Below, piece by piece: positions 4,823 to 58,035 of a stretch of 64,000 nt of DNA. Below the pieces are notes generated by a model that was not told where the DNA came from, did no database searches, and was given only the letters and a program-made list of their open reading frames with translations. The DNA is taken from positions 1,254 through 65,253 of the forward strand of contig JBAZQN010000011.1 in NCBI GenBank assembly GCA_041645165.1, read 5' to 3'. Each line of letters opens with the position of its first letter. Position 1 is the first letter of the stretch. This DNA comes from Patescibacteria group bacterium (GTDB lineage Bacteria > Patescibacteriota > Patescibacteriia > 2-02-FULL-49-11). A program made the translations under genes and the position numbers.

Positions 4823-4859
4823 GGGTGTATGCGCACATTGGGGATGTATATTCCTACAC

Positions 4860-4945
4860 AAAACCCCCTCTTTAGTCTCCCCCTTTCAGGGGGAGAACAT
4901 CCATCAATCGTCCTCCCCTTAAAAAGGGGGAGGATGAAGGTGGGG
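4860..4945 (+). terminator. pair of GC-rich hairpins downstream of murF (tctccccctttcagggggaga; cctccccttaaaaagggggagg)
   Basis: Two perfect 7-8 bp stems with no U-tract. Related C-rich palindromes occur inside the MITE-A copies. Confidence 0.4.
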
Positions 4946-5022
4946 GTGTCGATGGCCGGTGAGCATGTGCTTAAAGGTATCTTGACTTTAAAGTTATAAA
5001 CTGGTAACTCATTATTACGCAC

Positions 5023-5094
5023 GGCCTCTTCGTCTAGCGGCTAGGACATCTGGTTCTCAGCCAGAGAACAGGGGTTCAATTCCCCTAGAGGCTA
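5023..5094 (+). tRNA. tRNA-Glu (anticodon CUC)
   Basis: Manual cloverleaf: acceptor GGCCTCT/AGAGGCT (G1-U72 wobble), D arm GTCT-AGCGGCTA-GGAC, anticodon stem TCTGG/CCAGA with loop TTCTCAG, T arm AGGGG-TTCAATT-CCCCT, discriminator A. No encoded CCA. Confidence 0.8.
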
Positions 5095-5107
5095 ATTTCT
5101 AATTTAG

Positions 5108-5200
5108 GGTCAGCCATAGAACCCGGGTTCAAATCCCGGTGGCGGTAGTTGGTGCGGGGTCAGCGCAGGGACACCGGTTCAAATCCGATTGGGGCTGCCA
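5108..5200 (+). other. two tandem tRNA 3'-half fragments (anticodon-loop TCAG onward: variable region, T arm GGTTCAAATCC, acceptor 3' strand; the second ends in CCA)
   Basis: Fragment 1 is about 5108-5147 (…TCAGCCATAGAAC-CCGGG-TTCAAAT-CCCGG-TGGCGGT-A). Fragment 2 is about 5156-5200 (…TCAGCGCAGGGAC-ACCGG-TTCAAAT-CCGAT-TGGGGCT-G-CCA). No matching 5' acceptor strand, D arm or anticodon stem lies upstream of either. Confidence 0.6.
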
Positions 5201-5356
5201 TTTGAGAAAGGTCAAATTCACAGAAATCGCCTTGCTTCGCTCGACAATCAAATTATAAGGAATAATAGGCTTAAAAATCAGTTGGCGATTCTGGATTAGA
5301 AATAAAAGAAAATTTTTCATAGTTTTTATAAATTAATTTTTTAATTTACAAAATAT

Positions 5357-6130
5357 ATGTCATCTGAATTCGGACTGTCTCTCGAACAAATGGGAATAAA
5401 ACCGGAAGAAGTCAAAACTGAAACGCCAAAACAAGTTATTTATTCACCCACTTCTGTTGATAATCAACCTGACCATCGACAAGAAGAAATAGAAGTGAAA
5501 CAACGACAGGATACAGAAAAAATTAGAGAAAGTTTGAAAATAACTGAACCTACCGCGAAAATTGGTAATGCTGAAGAAAAAGGAGGTAATTCTGCAGAAA
5601 TACAAAAAGTTGATATAGCGCAAGCCACAGCTGATCTCGAACAGCAGTTTAATGATTTTCTTGAATCTTTTGCTAAGGAAAATGGGTTGGATGATTATAA
5701 TATTCATCAACTTCAGGAAGCTGCTCAAAAAATGCGGCTTAAAGGAGAAGCTGCGCTAGTAGAAAACAATATTAGAGAAAGAGATAAAGTGGAACAAATG
5801 CGCGTGGATGAGGCCACGGTTAATGAAAAAACTGAGCAACTTAATAGTATTGTTGGTAGGTGTAACAATGGATTAGATGAAATTGATGGCATAGAATTTA
5901 GGGGCAAGGTTCAGGCATTAAATGATGAGCTAAAGAAAGTAAATGAAGCTGCTGAAAGACAGGGCGAAAAGAAAATTCGGTCTTTTCTGTCAGCTGATTA
6001 TGGTGACGATTCATTTGTAAGGAAAATTTTTCGTGATAGAGACATGGCTAATGTAGCTCTCGAATCACTAAGAACAACTGTACAAAAAATTGCTGAAGGC
6101 ATAAAGCGAGGTTCGCGGTATGGTTATTAA
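5357..6130 (+). CDS. hypothetical Glu/Lys-rich coiled-coil protein (low GC)
   Basis: 257-aa ORF with AT-rich codon usage unlike its neighbours. No recognisable motif. Confidence 0.45.
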   Translation: MSSEFGLSLEQMGIKPEEVKTETPKQVIYSPTSVDNQPDHRQEEIEVKQRQDTEKIRESLKITEPTAKIGNAEEKGGNSAEIQKVDIAQATADLEQQFNDFLESFAKENGLDDYNIHQLQEAAQKMRLKGEAALVENNIRERDKVEQMRVDEATVNEKTEQLNSIVGRCNNGLDEIDGIEFRGKVQALNDELKKVNEAAERQGEKKIRSFLSADYGDDSFVRKIFRDRDMANVALESLRTTVQKIAEGIKRGSRYGY

Positions 6131-6305
6131 CTCATAAAGAATTTGCCGTCATAGAAAAACTAAAAATTGTCATCCCCGCGGCGAAGCCGCGTCAGAATTA
6201 TCAGATTTGGCGTGGTTCGGATGGCCGCCGCCTTCGGTGGCGAAATGAGTTCAAACTAATTTAAGAATACTCTATTTATAATTATAAATATTATTCACTA
6301 ATGTA

Positions 6306-7076
6306 TTGCTTATGATTATAGTATGGTCTATTCTCGGTTTTGCGTTATTATTGCTCATATCAGGTCTGCGGGTGATTGATCAGTATGAGCGGGGAGTAGT
6401 GCTTACCCTTGGAAAATATACGAGCACGCGAGTTCCTGGATTGAGATGGATATTTCCTGTGATCCAGCGGATGATCAAGATAGATCTTCGGATTACGACG
6501 ATTGACATTCCCCAGCAGGAAGTGATTACCAGAGACAACGTGCCGGTGGGGATCAATGCAGTGGTGTACTTCCAGGTAGAGGTGGCGGAAAATGCGATTT
6601 TGAATATCAAGGATTATACTCTTGCGGTGTCCCAGTACGCCCAGGCTGCTTTGCGGGATGTCATTGGCGGGATAGAGCTTGATTCGCTCCTGACGGAGCG
6701 GGAAAAGACCGCGGAGGTGATTAAAAAAATCGTGGACGAGGCCACGAAAGTATGGGGCATCAATGTCACTGACATCAAGATTCAGGATATTGAGCTGCCT
6801 GCGGATATGAAGCGCGTGATGGCCAAGCAGGCAGAAGCCGAGCGTGAACGCCGCGCCATTATCATTAAGGCAGAAGGGGAGTATTCCGCGTCAGAAAGGC
6901 TCGCACAGGCGGCAGAGCGCTTGAGCAGCGCCCCTGGCGGCATATCGCTGCGCACGCTTTCGACTATTGAAAAATTAAATCCTGATCCTTCGAAGATGGT
7001 CATCTTCACGCTGCCGGTAGAATTTTTTGAAGGTATCAAGACGCTCTCGTCATTCCTTCGCGACAAAAAGAAGTAG
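6306..7076 (+). CDS. SPFH/band-7 (stomatin/prohibitin-like) membrane protein
   Basis: 256 aa. N-terminal TM helix followed by the SPFH core (RVIDQYERGVVLTLGKY… QEVITRDNVPVGINAVVYFQV…) and a C-terminal coiled coil. Confidence 0.8.
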   Translation: MLMIIVWSILGFALLLLISGLRVIDQYERGVVLTLGKYTSTRVPGLRWIFPVIQRMIKIDLRITTIDIPQQEVITRDNVPVGINAVVYFQVEVAENAILNIKDYTLAVSQYAQAALRDVIGGIELDSLLTEREKTAEVIKKIVDEATKVWGINVTDIKIQDIELPADMKRVMAKQAEAERERRAIIIKAEGEYSASERLAQAAERLSSAPGGISLRTLSTIEKLNPDPSKMVIFTLPVEFFEGIKTLSSFLRDKKK

Positions 7077-8962: not shown

Positions 8963-9559
8963 TTGGTATACTGTTTAGAGAAGGAAGATACAAGGTACAA
9001 GAAACAAGTAACAAGAAATTTGATGTTGGATAAAAAGAGTATGCAAATTTCAGGGATAAGCGAAAAAGAATTACAAAAGAAATTGCGGGTGGGGTGGTTT
9101 ACGTTTACCTGCTGCGAGGATTCGACCATTATCATGACGGAAGTCATGAATGAGCATTGGGAAGAATGGAAGCGGTTTATTGATTTCCGCCACGCGCGGG
9201 TGTTGCGGACGGATAATATCCTCGATGAGCTTGACGTGGCGTTTGTGGAAGGCGCCATTTCGTCAGACCGTCAAGCGGCGCGCCTGAAGGAGATCCGCGA
9301 GAAAGCGAAACGCCTCGTGGCAGTAGGGGCGTGCGCGGTCATAGGGATGCCCTCATCCCAGCGCAATTTATTTGACGAGTCCACAAAGCGCGCCATCCAA
9401 TTCCTCGTGGACCGGTTTGGGCAGAAGGAATTGGTGAGGACGGTGAAGGAGCTTGTAAAGGTAGACGCAGAACTACCCGGTTGCCCGATGAATGAACAGA
9501 AATTTCTAGAAGTGTTGGAGAGGTATCTTAAGGAGTTTAATATTATCAAGGGATCATAA
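8963..9559 (+). CDS. [NiFe]-hydrogenase small subunit (NuoB-like Oxidored_q6 fold)
   Basis: Motifs WFTFTCCEDS … GACAVIGMP … GCPMNE match the proximal-cluster Cys ligands of hydrogenase small subunits. The likely true start is the ATG at 9041 (MQISGISEKEL…). It pairs with the large subunit at 11178. Confidence 0.7.
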   Translation: MVYCLEKEDTRYKKQVTRNLMLDKKSMQISGISEKELQKKLRVGWFTFTCCEDSTIIMTEVMNEHWEEWKRFIDFRHARVLRTDNILDELDVAFVEGAISSDRQAARLKEIREKAKRLVAVGACAVIGMPSSQRNLFDESTKRAIQFLVDRFGQKELVRTVKELVKVDAELPGCPMNEQKFLEVLERYLKEFNIIKGS

Positions 9560-10707: not shown

Positions 10708-11079
10708 ATGAAGGCAACAAATCGGACATATAATGATCGAGAATTGAAATCGTTAAGAAGAACATTACGGAAGAATTTTACCGATCAAGAGAGATTATTG
10801 TGGAGTAAATTGCGCAATAGGCAATTAGACGGACATAAGTTTTATCGGCAATACGGTGTTGGTCGTTATGTGGTAGACTTTTATTGTCCTGAAAAACGAA
10901 TTGTAATTGAATTAGACGGAGGGCACCATACCGAGAAGACGAACCTTCAGCTTGATGCTGAAAGGGATAAGGCATTGAACACCCTCAACATTCGAGTATT
11001 AAGATTTTGGAACCATGAGGTAAAGACCAATCTCTATGGAGTTCTGGAGACAATTCTGCACATTCTTAAGGATTCGTAA
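10708..11079 (+). CDS. DUF559 / Vsr-like endonuclease-domain protein
   Basis: 123 aa with C-terminal motifs …VDFYCPEKRIVIELDGGHHTEK…DAERDKALNTLNIRVLRFWNHEV typical of the DUF559 restriction-endonuclease-like fold. Preceded by HP2 (cctcctcttaaggtaagaggagg) plus SD ggaggagtt plus ATG. Confidence 0.7.
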   Translation: MKATNRTYNDRELKSLRRTLRKNFTDQERLLWSKLRNRQLDGHKFYRQYGVGRYVVDFYCPEKRIVIELDGGHHTEKTNLQLDAERDKALNTLNIRVLRFWNHEVKTNLYGVLETILHILKDS

Positions 11080-11177: not shown

Positions 11178-12488
11178 ATGCATAAAATAGATTTTGATCT
11201 CTCATTGGAAGAGGTTACCAAAATAGAGGGCGCAGCGACTTTGAGCGTGAAAGTGCGGGATGCAAAGGTGGAGGAGTGCAAGTTCGGCATCGCCGAGTAT
11301 AAAAGGTTTTATACGCAGGCGATGGTGGGAAAGCCCGCCTCTGCGCTCCCGCAGCATTTGGCGCGCATCTGCGGCACCTGCTCAAACGCCCATATCATGG
11401 CGTCGCTCGATGCAGTGGAGCACGCACTGGGCATTGTCCCTTCGGCGCAAACGAAGGTGTTGCGCGCGCTTACGATGGATGGGCTCATGATCCGCGACCA
11501 TGCGCTTCATCTTTATCTTTTTTCCTTACCTGACCTTTTAGGAAAAGACTCGATTCTCGCATTGGATGAAAATGATCCGGAAGAACACCAGCTGCTCCAT
11601 GACGCGTTTGACGTCAAGGCCGCGGGTAATCACTTGTCGCAGCTTGTGGCAGGCAGGAGCGTGCATGCGCCGATGCCGGTGGTGGGAGGTTTTTTGAAAA
11701 TACCAGATTCCGCGGGCATTGAGAAATCTCGGCGGGAACTCGAGCAAATAAGGCCTGCTCTACTGCGGCTGATAGGCGTATACGGGAAAAGTACATTTAT
11801 TCTTCTTTCCAAGACCAATTATGTGGCGCTTACCGCCAATCCGTACAGTTTCTTGCAGGGAGATCTTTGCGCGAGCAATGTTGCGTGCATTCCGGAAGAG
11901 CAGTTTATGGAGCATTTAAGCCATGTGGTGGTGCCTTATTCGCAGGCCTCCGCCTACGCGTTCCAGGGAGAGCTTTATCGGGTTGGCGCTTTGGCTCGCT
12001 TGAATTTGAACAAAGATGCGCTCAATCCCCGCACGAAAGCGGACGCTGCCCAATATCTTGCACGGTTCCCTTCAGATAACGCATATGATAACAATCTCGC
12101 GCAGGCAATCGAAATCCTGCACTGCATAGATGAGGCGCTGGAGATGCTCTCTACCCATTCATTCCATGCAGAGACGCCGCAAAAGGCGAACCCTCATGCG
12201 GGCGAGGGCATTGGCGTGATTGAGGCTCCCCGCGGCACGCTCTACCATAAGGTGGAGCTGGATGAAAAGGGGATAGTCACGCACGGCGACATCGTGGTGC
12301 CCACGGGGCAGAACCAGCTCGCCATTGAATGGGATATCAAGCAGTTAGTGGAGCAGTGGTTGAAGGAGGGGAAGGAGATTGGGAATAAAAAAGCGCTCGA
12401 ACATGAAATCGAGCAGCTTATCCGCGCGTACGACCCTTGCATGAGCTGCGCGGCGCATTTTTTGGAAGTTACGTGGGATGAAGCATAG
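11178..12488 (+). CDS. [NiFe]-hydrogenase large subunit
   Basis: N-terminal RICGTCSNAH (RxCGxCxxxH, L1) and C-terminal DPCMSCAAH (DPCxxCxxH, L5) Ni-Fe ligand motifs. 436 aa fits a group-3-type enzyme. Confidence 0.85.
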   Translation: MHKIDFDLSLEEVTKIEGAATLSVKVRDAKVEECKFGIAEYKRFYTQAMVGKPASALPQHLARICGTCSNAHIMASLDAVEHALGIVPSAQTKVLRALTMDGLMIRDHALHLYLFSLPDLLGKDSILALDENDPEEHQLLHDAFDVKAAGNHLSQLVAGRSVHAPMPVVGGFLKIPDSAGIEKSRRELEQIRPALLRLIGVYGKSTFILLSKTNYVALTANPYSFLQGDLCASNVACIPEEQFMEHLSHVVVPYSQASAYAFQGELYRVGALARLNLNKDALNPRTKADAAQYLARFPSDNAYDNNLAQAIEILHCIDEALEMLSTHSFHAETPQKANPHAGEGIGVIEAPRGTLYHKVELDEKGIVTHGDIVVPTGQNQLAIEWDIKQLVEQWLKEGKEIGNKKALEHEIEQLIRAYDPCMSCAAHFLEVTWDEA

Positions 12489-18064: not shown

Positions 18065-18715
18065 TTATTTTATTAAAAAAACATAGTAGCCGCTTGTTTG
18101 TTTTGACTTTTGTTTTTTTAACAGGATATCGGTAGTTCTTGCGAGCGTATTGAGGAGAGTAAAGCGGCCCAAGGGGCTCAAGTGTACCCATGTCTCGAGC
18201 GGCCCTCTTACTTTTTGTATTTCTAGAGAAGAGAAATTGCGGCTTAAATACTTTAGTGAATCTTCCGTATATCTCCAAAAGTCGCCATAATATCCCGGCT
18301 GCGCGTGGTAATAGTAGAGAAATGGGACATAGAGGAAGCAATAGCCGCCTTTTTTCAGCACGCGGTGCATTTCTTCAAAAGCCTTGAACGGGTTTTCAAT
18401 GTGTTCCAAAACTGCGATACAAATAATCGCATCGGTCGATGCGTCGCCCAGTGGCATGCGATGGATGTCCCCGATAATGTCAGGGTGGTAGTCCGGCACG
18501 GGATCAAGGATTTTATAATTTACCGCATTGAGATATTGTTTTATCCACGCGCGGTGCGGGTCATACCGGTTTCCTTTTGTGTCAGAAATTCTCAATCCTC
18601 CGCCAATGTCAATAATATCCTTTTTTTGCTCAAAGATTTGTCTTATCTTTTCGTAGAAGAAAGTATCCCAGGGAGTCATACGAAGAGCATTACCAAGAGG
18701 CGCATGTATCGCCAA
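18065..18715 (-). CDS. class I SAM-dependent methyltransferase
   Basis: Motif I DIGGG, and LEHIENPFKAFEEMHRVLKKGG (Methyltransf_11-like). Confidence 0.75.
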   Translation of the reverse strand: MAIHAPLGNALRMTPWDTFFYEKIRQIFEQKKDIIDIGGGLRISDTKGNRYDPHRAWIKQYLNAVNYKILDPVPDYHPDIIGDIHRMPLGDASTDAIICIAVLEHIENPFKAFEEMHRVLKKGGYCFLYVPFLYYYHAQPGYYGDFWRYTEDSLKYLSRNFSSLEIQKVRGPLETWVHLSPLGRFTLLNTLARTTDILLKKQKSKQTSGYYVFLIK

Positions 18716-18784
18716 AGAGCCGCACTTGAACCAGAACGGTTGCTGTTGTTATTAATTGACCCCATGGCTATAGCATATTGAAAT

Positions 18785-19738
18785 TTATTTTGAAATTTTT
18801 CGCTGTCGGGTTCTATTTTTAAGGTATCGCTCGATTGCCTCTTTTGAAGTTAACCAATTCCTGCCTTCTTTGTATGCTTCGAGTTTTCCTTGTCTCGCAA
18901 GTAAGTTTAGATATTTGGCGGAAAATGGGGTATTTTTAGATATCTCTGCCAATGTTACGAACTTTTCTTGTTTTTGTGTTGCCGGAGTTAAAGTTTTTAG
19001 ATAAATATCAAGGGAGCGCTCTATGGATTGAGCGATAAATTTCACCAATGGTTCATATTTTCCACTGTCTGCCTTGTCCAACACATCGTAATATTTTTTG
19101 TGGTCATTTTTCAAAATAATAACCAGCGGATAGCCAGTTTTCATCAGCAATACATTCATGGCTAAACGTGCGGTCCTGCCATTGCCGTCAAAAAATGGAT
19201 GAATATGTGTTAGTTTATGATGCAGTAAAGCTGAAAGCTCAATGATATTAATCTTATTTTTTTGTGAATTAAGCCAGTTGATTAAATCTCTCATTTTTTG
19301 GGGCACTTGCAATGCGTCGGGTGGTGTATGTTTCGCTCCGCCAATAATTACGTTAGCGTTCCTGTATTTCCCGGCCCACTCTTTGTCAGTTTCCCGTATA
19401 ATAATTTGGTGTAAATTTCGTATGAGCATTTCAGAGATGGTGTGTTTTTTATTTTTATCTATTAAGTCATACAGATATTCCAGCGCGGCATGATGGTCTT
19501 TTGCTTCCAAATGGTCTTTTAAAGGTTTTCCCTTTACTGTTATGCCTTCGTTAATAACTAAAAATGTCTCTTTTAAAGTTAAGGAATTGCCTTCAATGGC
19601 ATTTGAGTTGTAGGTCATTTCTATTTGAAATTTTTCCCGCAGTTTTTGTACCGCAGATTTTGGTAGGGGACGAAGTTTATTTAGTTTAATGAGTTTTTCT
19701 TCCAGTCGGGTTTTTATAATTGGCGATAGATAAGTCAT
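18785..19738 (-). CDS. Fic-family protein (AMPylation/Doc fold)
   Basis: Canonical Fic motif HPFFDGNGRTARL. 317 aa with a C-terminal HTH-like tail. Confidence 0.85.
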   Translation of the reverse strand: MTYLSPIIKTRLEEKLIKLNKLRPLPKSAVQKLREKFQIEMTYNSNAIEGNSLTLKETFLVINEGITVKGKPLKDHLEAKDHHAALEYLYDLIDKNKKHTISEMLIRNLHQIIIRETDKEWAGKYRNANVIIGGAKHTPPDALQVPQKMRDLINWLNSQKNKINIIELSALLHHKLTHIHPFFDGNGRTARLAMNVLLMKTGYPLVIILKNDHKKYYDVLDKADSGKYEPLVKFIAQSIERSLDIYLKTLTPATQKQEKFVTLAEISKNTPFSAKYLNLLARQGKLEAYKEGRNWLTSKEAIERYLKNRTRQRKISK

Positions 19739-19924
19739 AGGATAATACTTAATATGGTTTAGTTAATTATTTAGAGTATACCATATTAAGGAATTGGGTC
19801 AATTTCAGATATAAATTTGTCGTTTTTGGAGCTCCGCATCAAGTGCGGGGTAAACTCCGCGGAAAAAACACTATATTTCCCCTCTAAAAATAAAAAAGAA
19901 AAAATTTTATAAAAAATAATATTT

Positions 19925-20040
19925 CACATAACATTTGCGTATATCTGATGTTTTGTGGAGCGTAGCGGAGCAAAATATGGGTGTAGGCTCACGAAAGAGC
20001 CGTAGCCAGATATACGTTGTTAGCTGATGTATATGTTTTT
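19925..20040. repeat. attC-like palindrome A (gcgtatatctg … cagatatacg, then tGTTAGCTgatgtatatg)
   Basis: Its core gcgtagc…aaatatgggtg is shared with element C at 21588. Confidence 0.45.
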
Positions 20041-24494: not shown

Positions 24495-25346
24495 ATGATA
24501 TGTGGAGTGTATGATATTCTAATTGTAGATTCTATGGCTAATCTACTGGATATTTTAACTCGGGAGATGGTATTGCGCAATTATAGCCGGAAAACCATTG
24601 CGGCGTATACCAGCGCGGTCAAAGGCCTGTTTACTTTTTACAGAAAACCATTGCGTGATTTGTCATTGGAAGAGATTAAGGAATACTTGTACATCAAGCA
24701 GCAAAAGAAATTTTCCAGCCAGACGATCGCGCTCGCGGCCAATGCCATTAATTTCCTCTATACTCAGATTTACAAGAGACCTAACTTTGAAAAAATTCGG
24801 CATCCCAAACGAAGCCAGAGGTTGCCGGAAGTATTGAGCCGCATTGAAATTGAAAAAATATTGGAGCAGATTGAGAACATCAAGCATCGTTTGCTTATCG
24901 CCTGCGCCTATGGAGCGGGATTGCGGGTAAGCGAGGTGGTGCGGCTGCGCGTACAGGATATTGATATGGCAGATAAAACGATCACGGTCAGACAGGGCAA
25001 AGGCAGAAAAGACCGGCTGACCGTGTTATCAGGAAAGATCGTTAGTGACTTGGAAAAGTTCCTTGTTGGCAAAGAAGGACGAGATTGGGTGTTTGAGAGC
25101 GAACGCGGCGGACGGCTGACCGAAGCCACGGCGCAAAAAGTATTTTATGCCGCTCTTAAGAGAGCGGGGATTAAAAAGCATGCGACATTCCATTCTCTGC
25201 GGCATAGTTTTGCCACGCACCTTTTGGAAAACGGGGTAGACGTGCGTTATGTGCAGGAACTTTTGGGGCATGCGAATATCAGGACCACGCAGATTTACAC
25301 CAAAGTGACGAATCCAAGTCTGAAGAATATAAGAAGCCCGTTGTGA
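24495..25346 (+). CDS. tyrosine site-specific recombinase (XerC/XerD/integrase family)
   Basis: Catalytic residues R (AGLRVSE), K (KGRKDR), HSLRHSF, GHANIRTTQIY with the nucleophile Tyr. The likely start is the ATG at 24534 (MANLLDILT…), giving about 271 aa, which is too short for a canonical IntI. Confidence 0.85.
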   Translation: MICGVYDILIVDSMANLLDILTREMVLRNYSRKTIAAYTSAVKGLFTFYRKPLRDLSLEEIKEYLYIKQQKKFSSQTIALAANAINFLYTQIYKRPNFEKIRHPKRSQRLPEVLSRIEIEKILEQIENIKHRLLIACAYGAGLRVSEVVRLRVQDIDMADKTITVRQGKGRKDRLTVLSGKIVSDLEKFLVGKEGRDWVFESERGGRLTEATAQKVFYAALKRAGIKKHATFHSLRHSFATHLLENGVDVRYVQELLGHANIRTTQIYTKVTNPSLKNIRSPL

Positions 25347-41600: not shown

Positions 41601-41700
41601 GGTAATTGAAAATCAAAATGTAAAATTCAAAACTCAAAATTATGGAGTCCCGCATTAGCGGGACGTAATACCATCATTTTGATTTTTGATTTTTGGATTT
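41600..41700. repeat. heptamer-periodic quasi-palindrome (aaaatca repeats) around the hairpin gagtcccgcattagcgggac
   Basis: Mirror arms aatcaaaatgtaaaattcaaaactcaaaat / attttgatttttgatttttggatttt. Related to 45565-45660. Confidence 0.75.
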
Positions 41701-57848: not shown

Positions 57849-58035
57849 GGATATATAGATCTCACACTATGACATGGCACTGCGCTTAAGGCAGACCGCG
57901 ATTCTTGTTGCGGAACTCGTCCCGCTATGCGGGACTCAAACAGTCCTCACGGCGAACACTGTCTCCCCGCCAAAATAAGGCGGGGAGAGTAGTTGGTGGA
58001 GGTACGATTCACAAGATTTTTAAGTGAAGTATTAT

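Follow-up and report, generated by a model that had tools for sequence, protein, structure and literature searches.

Genomic islands that carry tyrosine integrases insert into tRNA genes, and those in the Islander database include a class that uses the anticodon loop (PMC4383910), a class for which PMC9897764 cites Williams 2002. Homing endonucleases are also known to act on tRNA genes: I-Ssp6803I, of the cyanobacterial tRNA-fMet intron, has a pseudo-palindromic target of 23 bp (PMC3384342), and SegB of phage T4 is a free-standing GIY-YIG enzyme that acts on tRNA gene regions (PMC2330249). Archaeal tRNA genes can be split, tri-split or interrupted by several introns, as summarised in PMC10714607, and ordinary tRNA pseudogenes and gene fragments are covered in PMC9897764.

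We discuss here a locus in 64 kb of DNA (the window) from an uncultured, Uhrbacteria-like Patescibacteria genome, in which two in-register tRNA 3' halves lie downstream of an intact tRNA-Glu(CUC) gene. The observation is real. We suggest, with a probability of about 0.6, that the two fragments are inert remnants, left as tRNA-Glu genes repeatedly broke at a specific position and replaced one another.

The tRNA-Glu gene and the two 3' halves

The features of the locus are given in Table 1. ARAGORN and Rfam agree that the window has exactly one tRNA, the tRNA-Glu(CUC) already recognised in the original prediction, which we call tRNA_new. Its acceptor stem is GGCCTCT/AGAGGCT with a G1.U72 pair, the discriminator is A73 and the CCA end is not encoded. 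The promoter-like sequence before it was not called by a consensus scan; it precedes the tRNA in relatives L010, L029, L033 and L037 with 3-4 differences, and is homologous to the promoter of the more distant L005, with a score equalled in 53 of 2000 shuffles.

Table 1. Features of the tRNA-Glu locus, in window coordinates
Feature	Position	Strand	Remarks
Promoter-like region, TTGACT ... TATTAC	4982..5022	+	abuts tRNA_new directly; orthologous in all relatives
tRNA_new, intact tRNA-Glu(CUC)	5023..5094	+	ARAGORN; Rfam RF00005, 57.8 bits
Spacer ATTTCTAATTTAGGG, 15 nt	5095..5109	+	between tRNA_new and fragment 1
Fragment 1	5110..5147	+	positions 35-73 of tRNA_anc, from anticodon loop TCAG to discriminator; dead in the window
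Fragment 1 trailer, GT + TGGTGCGGGGT	5148..5160	+	3' strand of 11-bp leader-trailer helix; 5' strand missing in the window
Fragment 2	5160..5200	+	3' half of a third, Glu-like tRNA (tRNA_x); in register with the other copies
AT-rich spacer	5201..5356	+	from fragment 2 to ORF257
ORF257	5357..6130	+	257 aa, rich in Glu and Lys; belongs to a tiny orphan family
Block, ~1.17 kb	5105..6271	+	TTTAGGG, both fragments, ORF257, GC-rich hairpins at 6160-6250

A repeat finder gave three tRNA copies in register from TCAGC, at 5057-5084 (inside tRNA_new), 5110-5137 (86%) and 5160-5187 (68%), with spacings of 53 and 50 nt, and the pattern TCAGCNNNNGNACNNNGGTTCAANTCC matches just those three sites in the window, where 100 shuffles led us to expect 0. 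All three 3' halves thus begin with TCAGC, and the earlier statement that both fragments start at one position of the anticodon loop (TCAG) is borne out. Two fragments had been placed at about 5108-5147 and 5156-5200; there are indeed two, and their bounds are refined to 5110-5147 and 5160-5200, with 15 and 12 nt between the pieces.

In fragment 2 the anticodon is reduced to TC, followed by A37. The variable region has 4 nt (GGAC), the T arm is ACCGG/CCGAT with one mismatch, the acceptor strand reads TGGGGCT and the discriminator is G; the CCA is encoded, as had been noted, so that the fragment ends in GCCA. From its xTC anticodon remainder and 4-nt variable region, in 41 nt, it would appear to be of Glu type. 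An intact tRNA_x was found neither in any fetched locus nor in viral contigs.

The fragments had been said to have no 5' acceptor strand, D arm or anticodon stem. The first two points are correct, and there is no 5' half of either fragment anywhere in the window. The third needs qualification for fragment 2, which is preceded by GTGCG, 4/5 paired with CGCAG in a pseudo anticodon arm with loop GGGTCAG, and the T arm said to be reproduced has, in that fragment, a C.A mismatch in its stem. A search of both strands of the 64 kb for the 5' half of tRNA_anc, the partner of tRNA_x or the left helix strand gave none of these, and the single 12-nt match, at 19843, sits in an unrelated hairpin. The proposed check for complete tRNAs in the region was made with ARAGORN, which gives one tRNA only and no split or permuted gene. 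Both fragments are below the Rfam and ARAGORN thresholds. They are tRNA-derived and lack elements needed for folding and charging, as for tRNA pseudogenes and gene fragments in general. Having no 5' acceptor strand they cannot mature or be charged, and today they are probably just a co-transcribed 3' trailer.

Alternative tRNA-Glu genes at the locus in relatives

A genome scan with MurF named the clade and gave the outgroup L005, but few close relatives. A 28-nt tRNA core was tried as a diagnostic and rejected, as it is a common consensus and a metagenome scan with it gave mostly ordinary tRNA-Glu(CUC) of other phyla. The contigs of the sister lineages have the locus in two states.

In state A (L033-L036) there is a clean tRNA_new allele with no fragments and the SPFH gene next, which is the empty site that had been looked for in relatives. 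The window tRNA_new is 100% identical to the sole tRNA of L033-L035. L033 also has a clear MITE-like insert with a CTAG duplication upstream.

In state B (L029-L032 and L037; five contigs from five samples) an intact tRNA-Glu(CUC), which we call tRNA_anc, lies inside the anticodon loop of tRNA_new. The order is promoter, positions 1-26 of tRNA_new, a 31-nt hairpin, TCTGGTTCT, TTACCCCGCACCACAT, intact tRNA_anc (53.9 bits), GTTGGTGCGGGG, and then TCAG with the 3' half of tRNA_new. The inserted unit of ~105 bp, tRNA_anc and its helix, is thus flanked by both halves of its target; it ends in TTTACCCCGCACC on the left and GGTGCGGGG(T) on the right. The fold is a cloverleaf within a cloverleaf at -108 kcal/mol (z = -7). 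The outer tRNA halves are pristine, and the outer tRNA could still be functional by splicing, in which case the nested state would have to be read differently. We found no description in the literature of a bacterial tRNA nested in a tRNA, in a search of incomplete coverage.

It is state B that gives the origin of fragment 1. Window positions 5110-5164 are identical to state B at 55/55 positions, and fragment 1 matches intact tRNA_anc of L029 at 38/38 and the intact tRNA of L005 at 36/38, although the flanking murF and SPFH genes have just 86-90% nucleotide identity to state B. By our own arithmetic an unchanged stretch of 55 nt at 88% identity has an expected probability of ~0.001, and the event or transfer must therefore be recent. 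The original prediction was right that the fragments are not simple duplications of the live tRNA, as fragment 1 is identical to a different gene, and for the same reason a tandem duplication of the 3' half of the live tRNA is ruled out. It had proposed a search of the genome for full-length tRNAs of which these are the 3' halves. The fragments are not halves of tRNAs from elsewhere: they come from alternative tRNA-Glu genes of their own locus, and the sister lineage has fragment 1 as part of an intact, nested gene.

When state B is folded to minimum energy, tRNA_anc is enclosed by an 11-bp helix, ACCCCGCACCA/TGGTGCGGGGT. The helix of L005, ATTTTGTATCA/TGATGCAGAAT, is also paired at 11/11 positions, with 4 double compensatory changes and 2 G.U pairs relative to state B, in a comparison of these two lineages only. 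As DNA, the unit has an 11-bp perfect inverted repeat, as a MITE or other small transposon might, but at most one base (T) that could be a target-site duplication. Inverted-repeat ends of a DNA element would yield the same compensatory pattern except for the two G.U pairs by which L005 keeps its pairing, and these favour an RNA helix. The L005 leader resembles a decayed 5' half of tRNA-Glu (93 of 5000 shuffles score equally high), while a test of the L005 trailer as a decayed fragment 2 was not significant.

The locus may also vary within a population. L010 and L029 are 99.8% identical over 3.9 kb, and the L010 contig ends with two bases of uninterrupted tRNA exactly at the hairpin insert of L029; this amounts to a single T/C difference at the end of a contig and only hints that a polymorphism is live in one population. 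More distant relatives, with 65% MurF identity, have their own tRNA-Glu debris, in the case of L012 and L016 beside a small GIY-YIG nuclease gene, an ORF of 93 aa that matches PF01541 and has no match in PHROGs or NCBIfam.

With several alleles sharing stretches of 13-55 nt, with more than one allele perhaps co-occurring in at least one sample, and with contigs of relatives that break at the locus (L010 within the tRNA, L004 where murF ends), it could be argued that the arrangement is a chimera, in which the assembler joined co-occurring strains at a short common tRNA sequence. However the window assembly (megahit, k141) and the independent Logan assembly L002 are 100% identical across 4921-5400, so that two assemblers agree on the arrangement, the common stretches are far shorter than k = 141, and NCBI, JGI, ENA, Logan and GEM all have the same ORF257 protein sequence. 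A chimera is hardly credible in the light of these data.

The position of the junctions

All junctions are at TTC(T)|(T)CAG, that is the left and right junctions of state B and both junctions in the window. The right end of the tRNA_anc unit abuts two different tRNAs at one nucleotide, tRNA_new in state B and tRNA_x in the window, and in state B the insertion is precise on both sides. In the spacer after tRNA_new the first ~10 nt resemble, by eye, the native flank 3' of tRNA_new in relatives: the aligner match to the L033/L036 flank stops at 5098, and its extension to TTTCTAA is a by-eye reading against the flank of L029. The junction of this spacer with TCAG is at the same loop position as the others.

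These data bear on the possibility that no dedicated enzyme is involved, and that DNA from diverged relatives entered with one homologous anchor (murF and the promoter) and was joined illegitimately at microhomology in the anticodon loop. The loop is the longest stretch that these tRNAs have in common, tRNA_new and tRNA_anc sharing a 13-nt identical run, TGGTTCTCAGCCA, centred on it, so that some bias of breakpoints towards the loop needs no dedicated enzyme. TCAGC is common to all three 3' halves, the locus varies between and possibly within populations, and the L010 and L004 contigs break there. However the sequence left of the junctions (GGGG, TTTAGGG and TTTACCCC) is not tRNA sequence, so the junctions are not crossovers inside common tRNA stretches, and the single-nucleotide consistency of the tRNA_anc unit end and the two-sided precision of state B also speak against it. 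For RecA-dependent exchange, an identical stretch of five nucleotides is very short. We find this explanation doubtful.

The 1.17-kb block and ORF257

The block that holds the fragments and ORF257 is absent from both sister lineages, where the order is tRNA, ~35 nt and SPFH gene, and homology to state A resumes at ~6272-6282. The right edge of the block (6131-6312) has no tRNA remnant, the test for a decayed one that could be an attR site being not significant. There may be an imperfect flanking repeat of ~10 nt, CTAATTTCTAA at 5092-5102 and CTATTTATAA at 6272-6281. It was seen by eye, would begin with the last 3 nt of the tRNA and is reported by no tool; the single short repeat found in an alignment test was not significant.

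The low-GC gene that had been noted after the fragments is confirmed, with 37-40% GC against roughly 50% in the flanking genes. Its protein matches only itself among 5.8e9 clustered proteins; exhaustive HMMER searching gave three remote relatives at 33-34% identity, two of which, when aligned, have the C-terminal ~170 residues in common, and there was no match in Pfam or NCBIfam and one marginal match in PHROG. We conclude that ORF257 is a real near-orphan gene. The 63-aa minus-strand ORF at 5129-5320 called by pipelines, which overlaps the fragments, is probably spurious.

It is of note that there is no terminator on the + strand between 5023 and 5357, and that one remote relative of ORF257 is also located ~210 nt downstream of a tRNA 3' end. 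The fragments could then be functional, either as minihelices that direct RNase P/RNase Z processing of a co-transcript of the tRNA and ORF257 or as CCA-ended decoys or primers: fragment 1 can be read as a weak acceptor/T-arm minihelix, drawn with 5/7 pairs (19.3 bits, E 0.72 in Rfam, below threshold), and fragment 2 has the CCA end. However the array is confined to the window lineage and missing from the two closest lineages, fragment 1 is simply identical to half of a working tRNA and so gives no independent conservation or covariation, fragment 2 has its T-stem mismatch and no acceptor partner, and all scores are under every Rfam threshold. A function of this kind is very improbable.

Comparison with integrase islands

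The original prediction was that the fragments are scars of two integration and excision events, with the integrase later lost. In such a history two tyrosine-integrase islands would have integrated successively in the anticodon loop, each regenerating the tRNA and displacing the old 3' half, and both islands and integrases would since have gone. There is much in the locus that is as in integrase islands. The break is in the anticodon loop, with both fragments starting at a single loop position, the orphan 3' fragments are in direct orientation downstream of an intact tRNA and have accumulated in tandem, and close relatives have an empty site. Integration in tRNA genes, and in their anticodon loops, is well established and usually leaves displaced 3' fragments behind (PMC4383910, PMC9897764). 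The low-GC block is an insertion relative to the sister lineages, and the possible repeat CTAATTTCTAA/CTATTTATAA would flank it.

Nonetheless we consider island scars unlikely. The block encodes only ORF257, with no integrase in it or near it, and the sole integrase-family ORF found, in a scan of 19 of the 59 window ORFs of at least 90 aa (span 1.5-32 kb), is a XerA-type recombinase at 24495-25346, 19 kb off. The DNA between the pieces, 15 and 12 nt, is not of the size of an element. The fragments do not fit the live 5' half, as its strand GGCCTCT pairs at 4/7 positions with TGGCGGT of fragment 1 and poorly also with TGGGGCT of fragment 2. Site-specific excision restores the tRNA and leaves no scar, and at a tRNA gene with an island the regenerated tRNA retains the resident 5' half. 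At this locus both halves of the live tRNA are together in relatives that have no island, the fragment that matches the resident tRNA of the outgroup is proximal and not distal, which is the wrong order for islands, and the far end of the block has no displaced 3' half. In the sister lineage the insert is a tRNA and helix of ~105 bp between both target halves, and not an island. Viral contigs held no phage attP candidate when searched with patterns for the end of fragment 2, the tRNA core, the junction of fragment 1 with the helix and a GGGTCAGC-fragment. What stands of the prediction is that the orphan 3' halves record recombination at the loop site; that they are scars of integrase-bearing elements is not supported. 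Insertions of IS200/IS605 type, of integron type or dependent on Xer were also considered, on the junction sequences only, and none fits.

Proposed history of the locus

We suggest instead that the array arose by turnover of tRNA-Glu genes. The starting state would have been a block with tRNA_x and ORF257 downstream of the resident tRNA. A tRNA_anc unit would then have landed in the anticodon loop of tRNA_x to give a tRNA within a tRNA, and fragment 2 would be the outer 3' half of tRNA_x because the tRNA_anc cassette interrupted it. A later break in tRNA_anc, at the same position of its loop, may have been repaired with a loss of ~100 nt to the left, a deletion that would have taken away the 5' halves of tRNA_x and tRNA_anc and, between them, the left helix strand. 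GAG would be decoded throughout, since no stage is without a complete tRNA-Glu(CUC) gene. The junction at 5103-5109 (TTTAGGG) is not accounted for by this history.

The cause would be a trans-acting nuclease or recombinase specific for the DNA of the tRNA-Glu anticodon loop, together with repair or gene conversion from alleles in the population. We think it most likely that such an enzyme, and not a resident island integrase, is responsible. We saw no excised or circular form, and in the window neither a nuclease gene nor a recombinase gene is linked to the locus.

A more far-reaching possibility, which we put forward tentatively and well short of conviction, is that the clade harbours a hitherto undescribed kind of tiny mobile unit, a promoter-less tRNA-Glu(CUC) in an 11-bp helix that homes precisely into the anticodon loop of the resident isoacceptor and takes over its promoter and function. 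A trans-acting site-specific nuclease or recombinase would drive it, and the window array would be the fossil of successive rounds. In a bolder variant the outer tRNA would still be matured, the inner tRNA being in effect a tRNA-encoding intron.

Comparison with homing and split tRNA genes

Homing of group I introns resembles the behaviour of the tRNA_anc unit in the precise insert in the anticodon loop of one tRNA species, in the homologous position in diverged alleles, in a closing helix that joins the gene halves and in the presence of intron-less alleles in the population. The I-Ssp6803I target reportedly is the tRNA-fMet anticodon region, as Bonocora and Shub are said to have found in 2001. 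In contrast the tRNA_anc unit is ~105 nt, mostly tRNA, has no endonuclease inside and itself supplies the tRNA function, and a ribozyme fold was found in neither nested state B nor the window, with no Rfam intron match and nothing beyond tRNA.

In the case of SegB, the parallel is with L012 and L016, where the small GIY-YIG gene lies beside tRNA-Glu debris, and the outcome resembles non-reciprocal replacement of a tRNA segment. However the window has no GIY-YIG gene near the tRNA, the enzyme of L012 and L016 is a short putative PF01541 protein, and SegB is active when phages co-infect a cell.

In Nanoarchaeum, tRNA-Glu is one of the tRNAs known to be split. Archaeal split tRNAs are like this locus in being divided in or near the anticodon loop, and here too the halves could be kept together by a complementary leader-trailer helix rich in GC. 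They differ in that this is a bacterium, that the halves are contiguous around another tRNA and not dispersed, and that the window has no 5' halves. Inspection of the junctions by eye gave no bulge-helix-bulge motif; in state B the junction is an internal loop of 4 nt and 1 nt, flanked by helices of 7 bp and 11 bp, which we do not read as such a motif.

Ordinary tRNA pseudogenes are, like our fragments, partial sequences with no 5' half that are rightly rejected by tRNA finders. The difference is that the origin of the fragments can be traced, and lies not in a virus or CRISPR spacer but in a nested-gene intermediate and in alternative alleles of the locus.

Implications

Orphan tRNA halves are routinely used as markers of integrase islands and to delimit them. 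Here the same footprint appears to have arisen with neither island nor integrase, by turnover of alternative tRNA-Glu genes that occupy a single locus, and this is a warning for annotation and for island-finding pipelines, which may take such fragments as att sites. If the turnover is enzyme-driven, it points to an unrecognised loop-specific DNA nuclease or recombinase, or to a self-compensating mini mobile element, in the poorly understood candidate phyla radiation. The locus also offers a definite starting point for asking if bacteria can process tRNAs that are split or interrupted.

The tRNA array of the window

The window is from an uncultured member of the Patescibacteria related to Candidatus Uhrbacteria (source contig ENA ERZ27249422 k141_110275); its MurF shares 86% identity with the MGER01000034 protein and 79% with the JBFLWV010000033 one. 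ARAGORN and Rfam find only one tRNA in the 64 kb, a tRNA-Glu(CUC) of 57.8 bits that we call tRNA_new. Its 3' portion is repeated twice directly after it, all in register from TCAGC (5110-5137, 86% identical to the tRNA, and 5160-5187, 68%, with spacings of 53 and 50 nt), and a pattern of loop end, variable region and T arm has three matches in the window, all at these copies, with none expected. The original prediction of an intact tRNA-Glu and two tandem 3' halves is confirmed with small corrections, ARAGORN giving just the one tRNA for the region. Over 4921-5400 an independent Logan assembly gives exactly this sequence.

Positions of the features discussed, in the window or in the relatives' contigs
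Feature	Sequence	Position	Remarks
158-nt element	window	4823-4980	
tRNA_new	window	5023-5094	acceptor GGCCTCT/AGAGGCT
Fragment 1	window	5110-5147	3' half of tRNA_anc
Fragment 2	window	5160-5200	3' half of third tRNA; terminates GCCA
63-aa ORF	window	5129-5320 (-)	overlaps both fragments
ORF257	window	5357-6130 (+)	257 aa, Glu/Lys-rich
Hairpin pair	window	6160-6250	right end of ORF257 block
DUF559/MTES_1575 gene	window	10708-11079	123 aa
Fic/DOC plus HTH protein gene	window	18785-19738	
XerA-type recombinase gene	window	24495-25346	
GC-rich hairpin family	window	41646-41665 (+), 57918-57936 (-)	intergenic
GC-rich hairpin family	L029	5189-5219	between outer tRNA positions 26 and 27, state B
Nested gene	L029	5163-5392	state B
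MITE-like insert	L033	1966-2121	
Contig tip in tRNA	L010	3863-3890	
tRNA 3' end and ORF257 relative	L039	1-35 and 244-918	
Degenerate tRNA-Glu and GIY-YIG gene	L012	9211-9631	
Degenerate tRNA-Glu and GIY-YIG gene	L016	7082-7363	
tRNA-Glu 5' fragment	L017	5086-5190	

Both fragments lack a 5' acceptor strand and a D arm, and a search for their missing 5' halves in the rest of the 64-kb window found none. There is no terminator between the fragments and tRNA_new, nor between them and ORF257, and they are probably an inert trailer. The seven bases TTTAGGG (5103-5109) directly before fragment 1 are not accounted for by the history proposed below. The 63-aa ORF annotated here by public pipelines is probably spurious. 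The tRNA-Glu(CUC) genes read in the clade, and unrelated metagenome matches (L019-L023, L025, L027, L028), share a G1.U72 wobble pair and A73 and do not encode CCA; fragment 2 has G73 and does encode CCA, a hint that it came from another lineage.

Clean and nested alleles in relatives

MurF and the SPFH gene further downstream served to locate the same locus in relatives, and three close lineages, about equidistant from each other (86-90% nucleotide identity over murF and SPFH), each have their own arrangement. State A (L033-L036) has murF, a conserved promoter, tRNA_new, about 35 AT-rich nt and SPFH, with neither fragments nor ORF257, and is the empty site looked for in relatives. In state B (L029-L032 and L037, from five samples) tRNA_new is interrupted by a 31-nt hairpin between positions 26 and 27 and, in the anticodon loop, by TTACCCCGCACCACAT, an intact tRNA_anc (a tRNA-Glu(CUC) of 53.9 bits with acceptor GCCGCTA/TGGCGGT) and GTTGGTGCGGGG, after which it picks up again with TCAGCCAGAG. 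Both outer halves match the uninterrupted sister-lineage gene exactly, and the composite folds as a cloverleaf in a cloverleaf with an 11-bp closing helix, ACCCCGCACCA/TGGTGCGGGGT (-108 kcal/mol, z = -7). The window is state C: intact tRNA_new, 15 nt, the tRNA_anc 3' half, GT and the 3' strand of the helix, and the 3' half of the third tRNA. Clean and nested alleles exist among closely related lineages.

Window positions 5110-5164 are identical to state B at 55 of 55 sites, for which we calculate a chance of about 0.001 at the flanking divergence, so the disruption or transfer was recent. Fragment 1 and its trailer are the right part of a helix-flanked tRNA_anc unit, whose right end is joined to tRNA_new in state B; in the window that end is joined to fragment 2. 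The L010 contig, which matches L029 at 99.8% over 3.9 kb, ends two bases into an uninterrupted tRNA, exactly where L029 carries the hairpin insert; resting on one base at the contig tip, this only hints that both alleles co-exist within one population. The L004 contig ends at the end of murF, and the two contigs hint that allele heterogeneity breaks assemblies at this locus.

The outgroup L005 (MurF 79%) has the orthologous promoter, tRNA_anc alone and then a terminator. The same 11 positions around its tRNA, ATTTTGTATCA/TGATGCAGAAT, are all paired (11/11), with four pairs changed on both sides and two pairs G.U. When the 52-nt leader from promoter to helix is aligned to a composite of 12 nt, a tRNA-Glu 5' half and TTT, it outscores 98% of shuffles (93 of 5000 reach its score), so L005 may be an old nested state with a decayed outer gene. 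Its trailer gives no such signal.

The short stretch that separates the murF stop from the tRNA promoter is a hot spot for insertions in its own right. There the window carries an element with G/C-run inverted repeats (weak, sub-threshold Rfam DUF1874-motif match, 23 bits), L033 a different MITE-like insert of about 150 nt with terminal inverted repeats of about 11/15 and a CTAG duplication, and L029 an empty site. The family of small GC-rich hairpins AGTCCCGC-N3/4-GCGGGACG has the look of REP-type mini repeats.

Relatives further away (MurF 65%) have tRNA debris of their own. In L012 and L016 a degenerate second tRNA-Glu copy, with a 50-nt two-hairpin insert in the T loop, adjoins a small GIY-YIG ORF (93 aa, PF01541), and the live tRNA follows shortly downstream. 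L011, of the same species, has another arrangement, with a T-arm/acceptor fragment bearing a 50-nt insert downstream of the live tRNA. The L017 fragment lies about 250 nt upstream of an intact tRNA and has a 69-nt palindromic insert in its D loop with perfect 10-bp terminal inverted repeats (CCCGCCTCGC...GCGAGGCGGG).

The integrase reading

The original prediction took the fragments as scars of two successive integration and excision events, a reading that fails. When an integrase excises an element, the tRNA is made whole again and no piece stays behind. While an island is integrated, the live tRNA has the resident 5' half, with which displaced fragments are compatible. The present fragments do not fit the live 5' half (4/7 acceptor pairs), the complete live tRNA occurs in island-free relatives, and the pieces are just 15 nt (tRNA_new to fragment 1) and 12 nt (fragment 1 to fragment 2) apart. 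The sole integrase-family gene among 19 ORFs scanned (1.5-32 kb) is for a XerA-type tyrosine recombinase (NF040815, 228 bits, cut-off 220), which scores 221 bits on an integron-integrase subfamily model, under that model's cut-off. The excess of the window over states A and B is a 1.17-kb block (about 5105-6271), with no tRNA remnant at its far end. The scars of tRNA-gene islands (PMC4383910, PMC9897764) have a similar footprint, but the array departs from them in three of four defining features. The predicted specificity for the anticodon loop holds: the two junctions that flank the anticodon-loop insert of state B, like the two in the window, are at TTC(T)|(T)CAG.

ORF257 and other possibly foreign genes

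ORF257 matches itself alone in a search of 5.8 billion clusters, has three remote relatives (33-34% identity) by exhaustive HMMER, with the C-terminal 170 or so residues common to the two aligned, and obtained no assignment from family searches; it is thus a real but nearly orphan gene. Its closest relative (33%) has a tRNA 3' end about 210 nt upstream of it, on a contig that begins inside that tRNA, which fits arrival of ORF257 together with tRNA_x, the Glu-like source of fragment 2. At its right end the block carries two GC-rich hairpins, CGCGGC-GAA-GCCGCG and GCCGCC-TTCG-GTGGCG, within otherwise AT-rich DNA.

Elsewhere, the DUF559/MTES_1575 gene, of a family with a Vsr-like endonuclease fold, lies amid hydrogenase-related genes (8963-9559, 11178-12488) and may be a selfish insertion. 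The low-GC patch at 18500-20000 (33-39%) with the Fic/DOC gene may be another foreign block.

Proposed history

We infer three steps. A block with tRNA_x (CCA encoded) and ORF257 would have come to lie downstream of tRNA_new; a tRNA_anc unit would then have entered the anticodon loop of tRNA_x; and tRNA_anc would later have been broken at this same loop position, its repair, with about 100 nt lost leftward, giving the present array. Each step would have been tolerated because a complete tRNA-Glu(CUC) gene was present throughout. GAG is usually also readable by tRNA-Glu(UUC). As cause we favour a nuclease or recombinase that acts in trans and specifically on this anticodon-loop DNA, the breaks being repaired from other alleles; the main alternative is illegitimate recombination at the conserved loop.

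Closest in working to the nested state are intron homing into the tRNA anticodon loop and intron-less homing by free-standing endonucleases (PMC2330249, PMC3384342), but the window has neither a ribozyme nor a linked nuclease. The closing helix is reminiscent of archaeal split tRNAs (PMC10714607), but no bulge-helix-bulge motif was seen by eye. In the literature covered, which was incomplete, we met no description of one bacterial tRNA gene lying inside a second, so novelty is not proven. We rate the finding as belonging with tRNA gene fragments that arise when recombination takes place at the anticodon loop.
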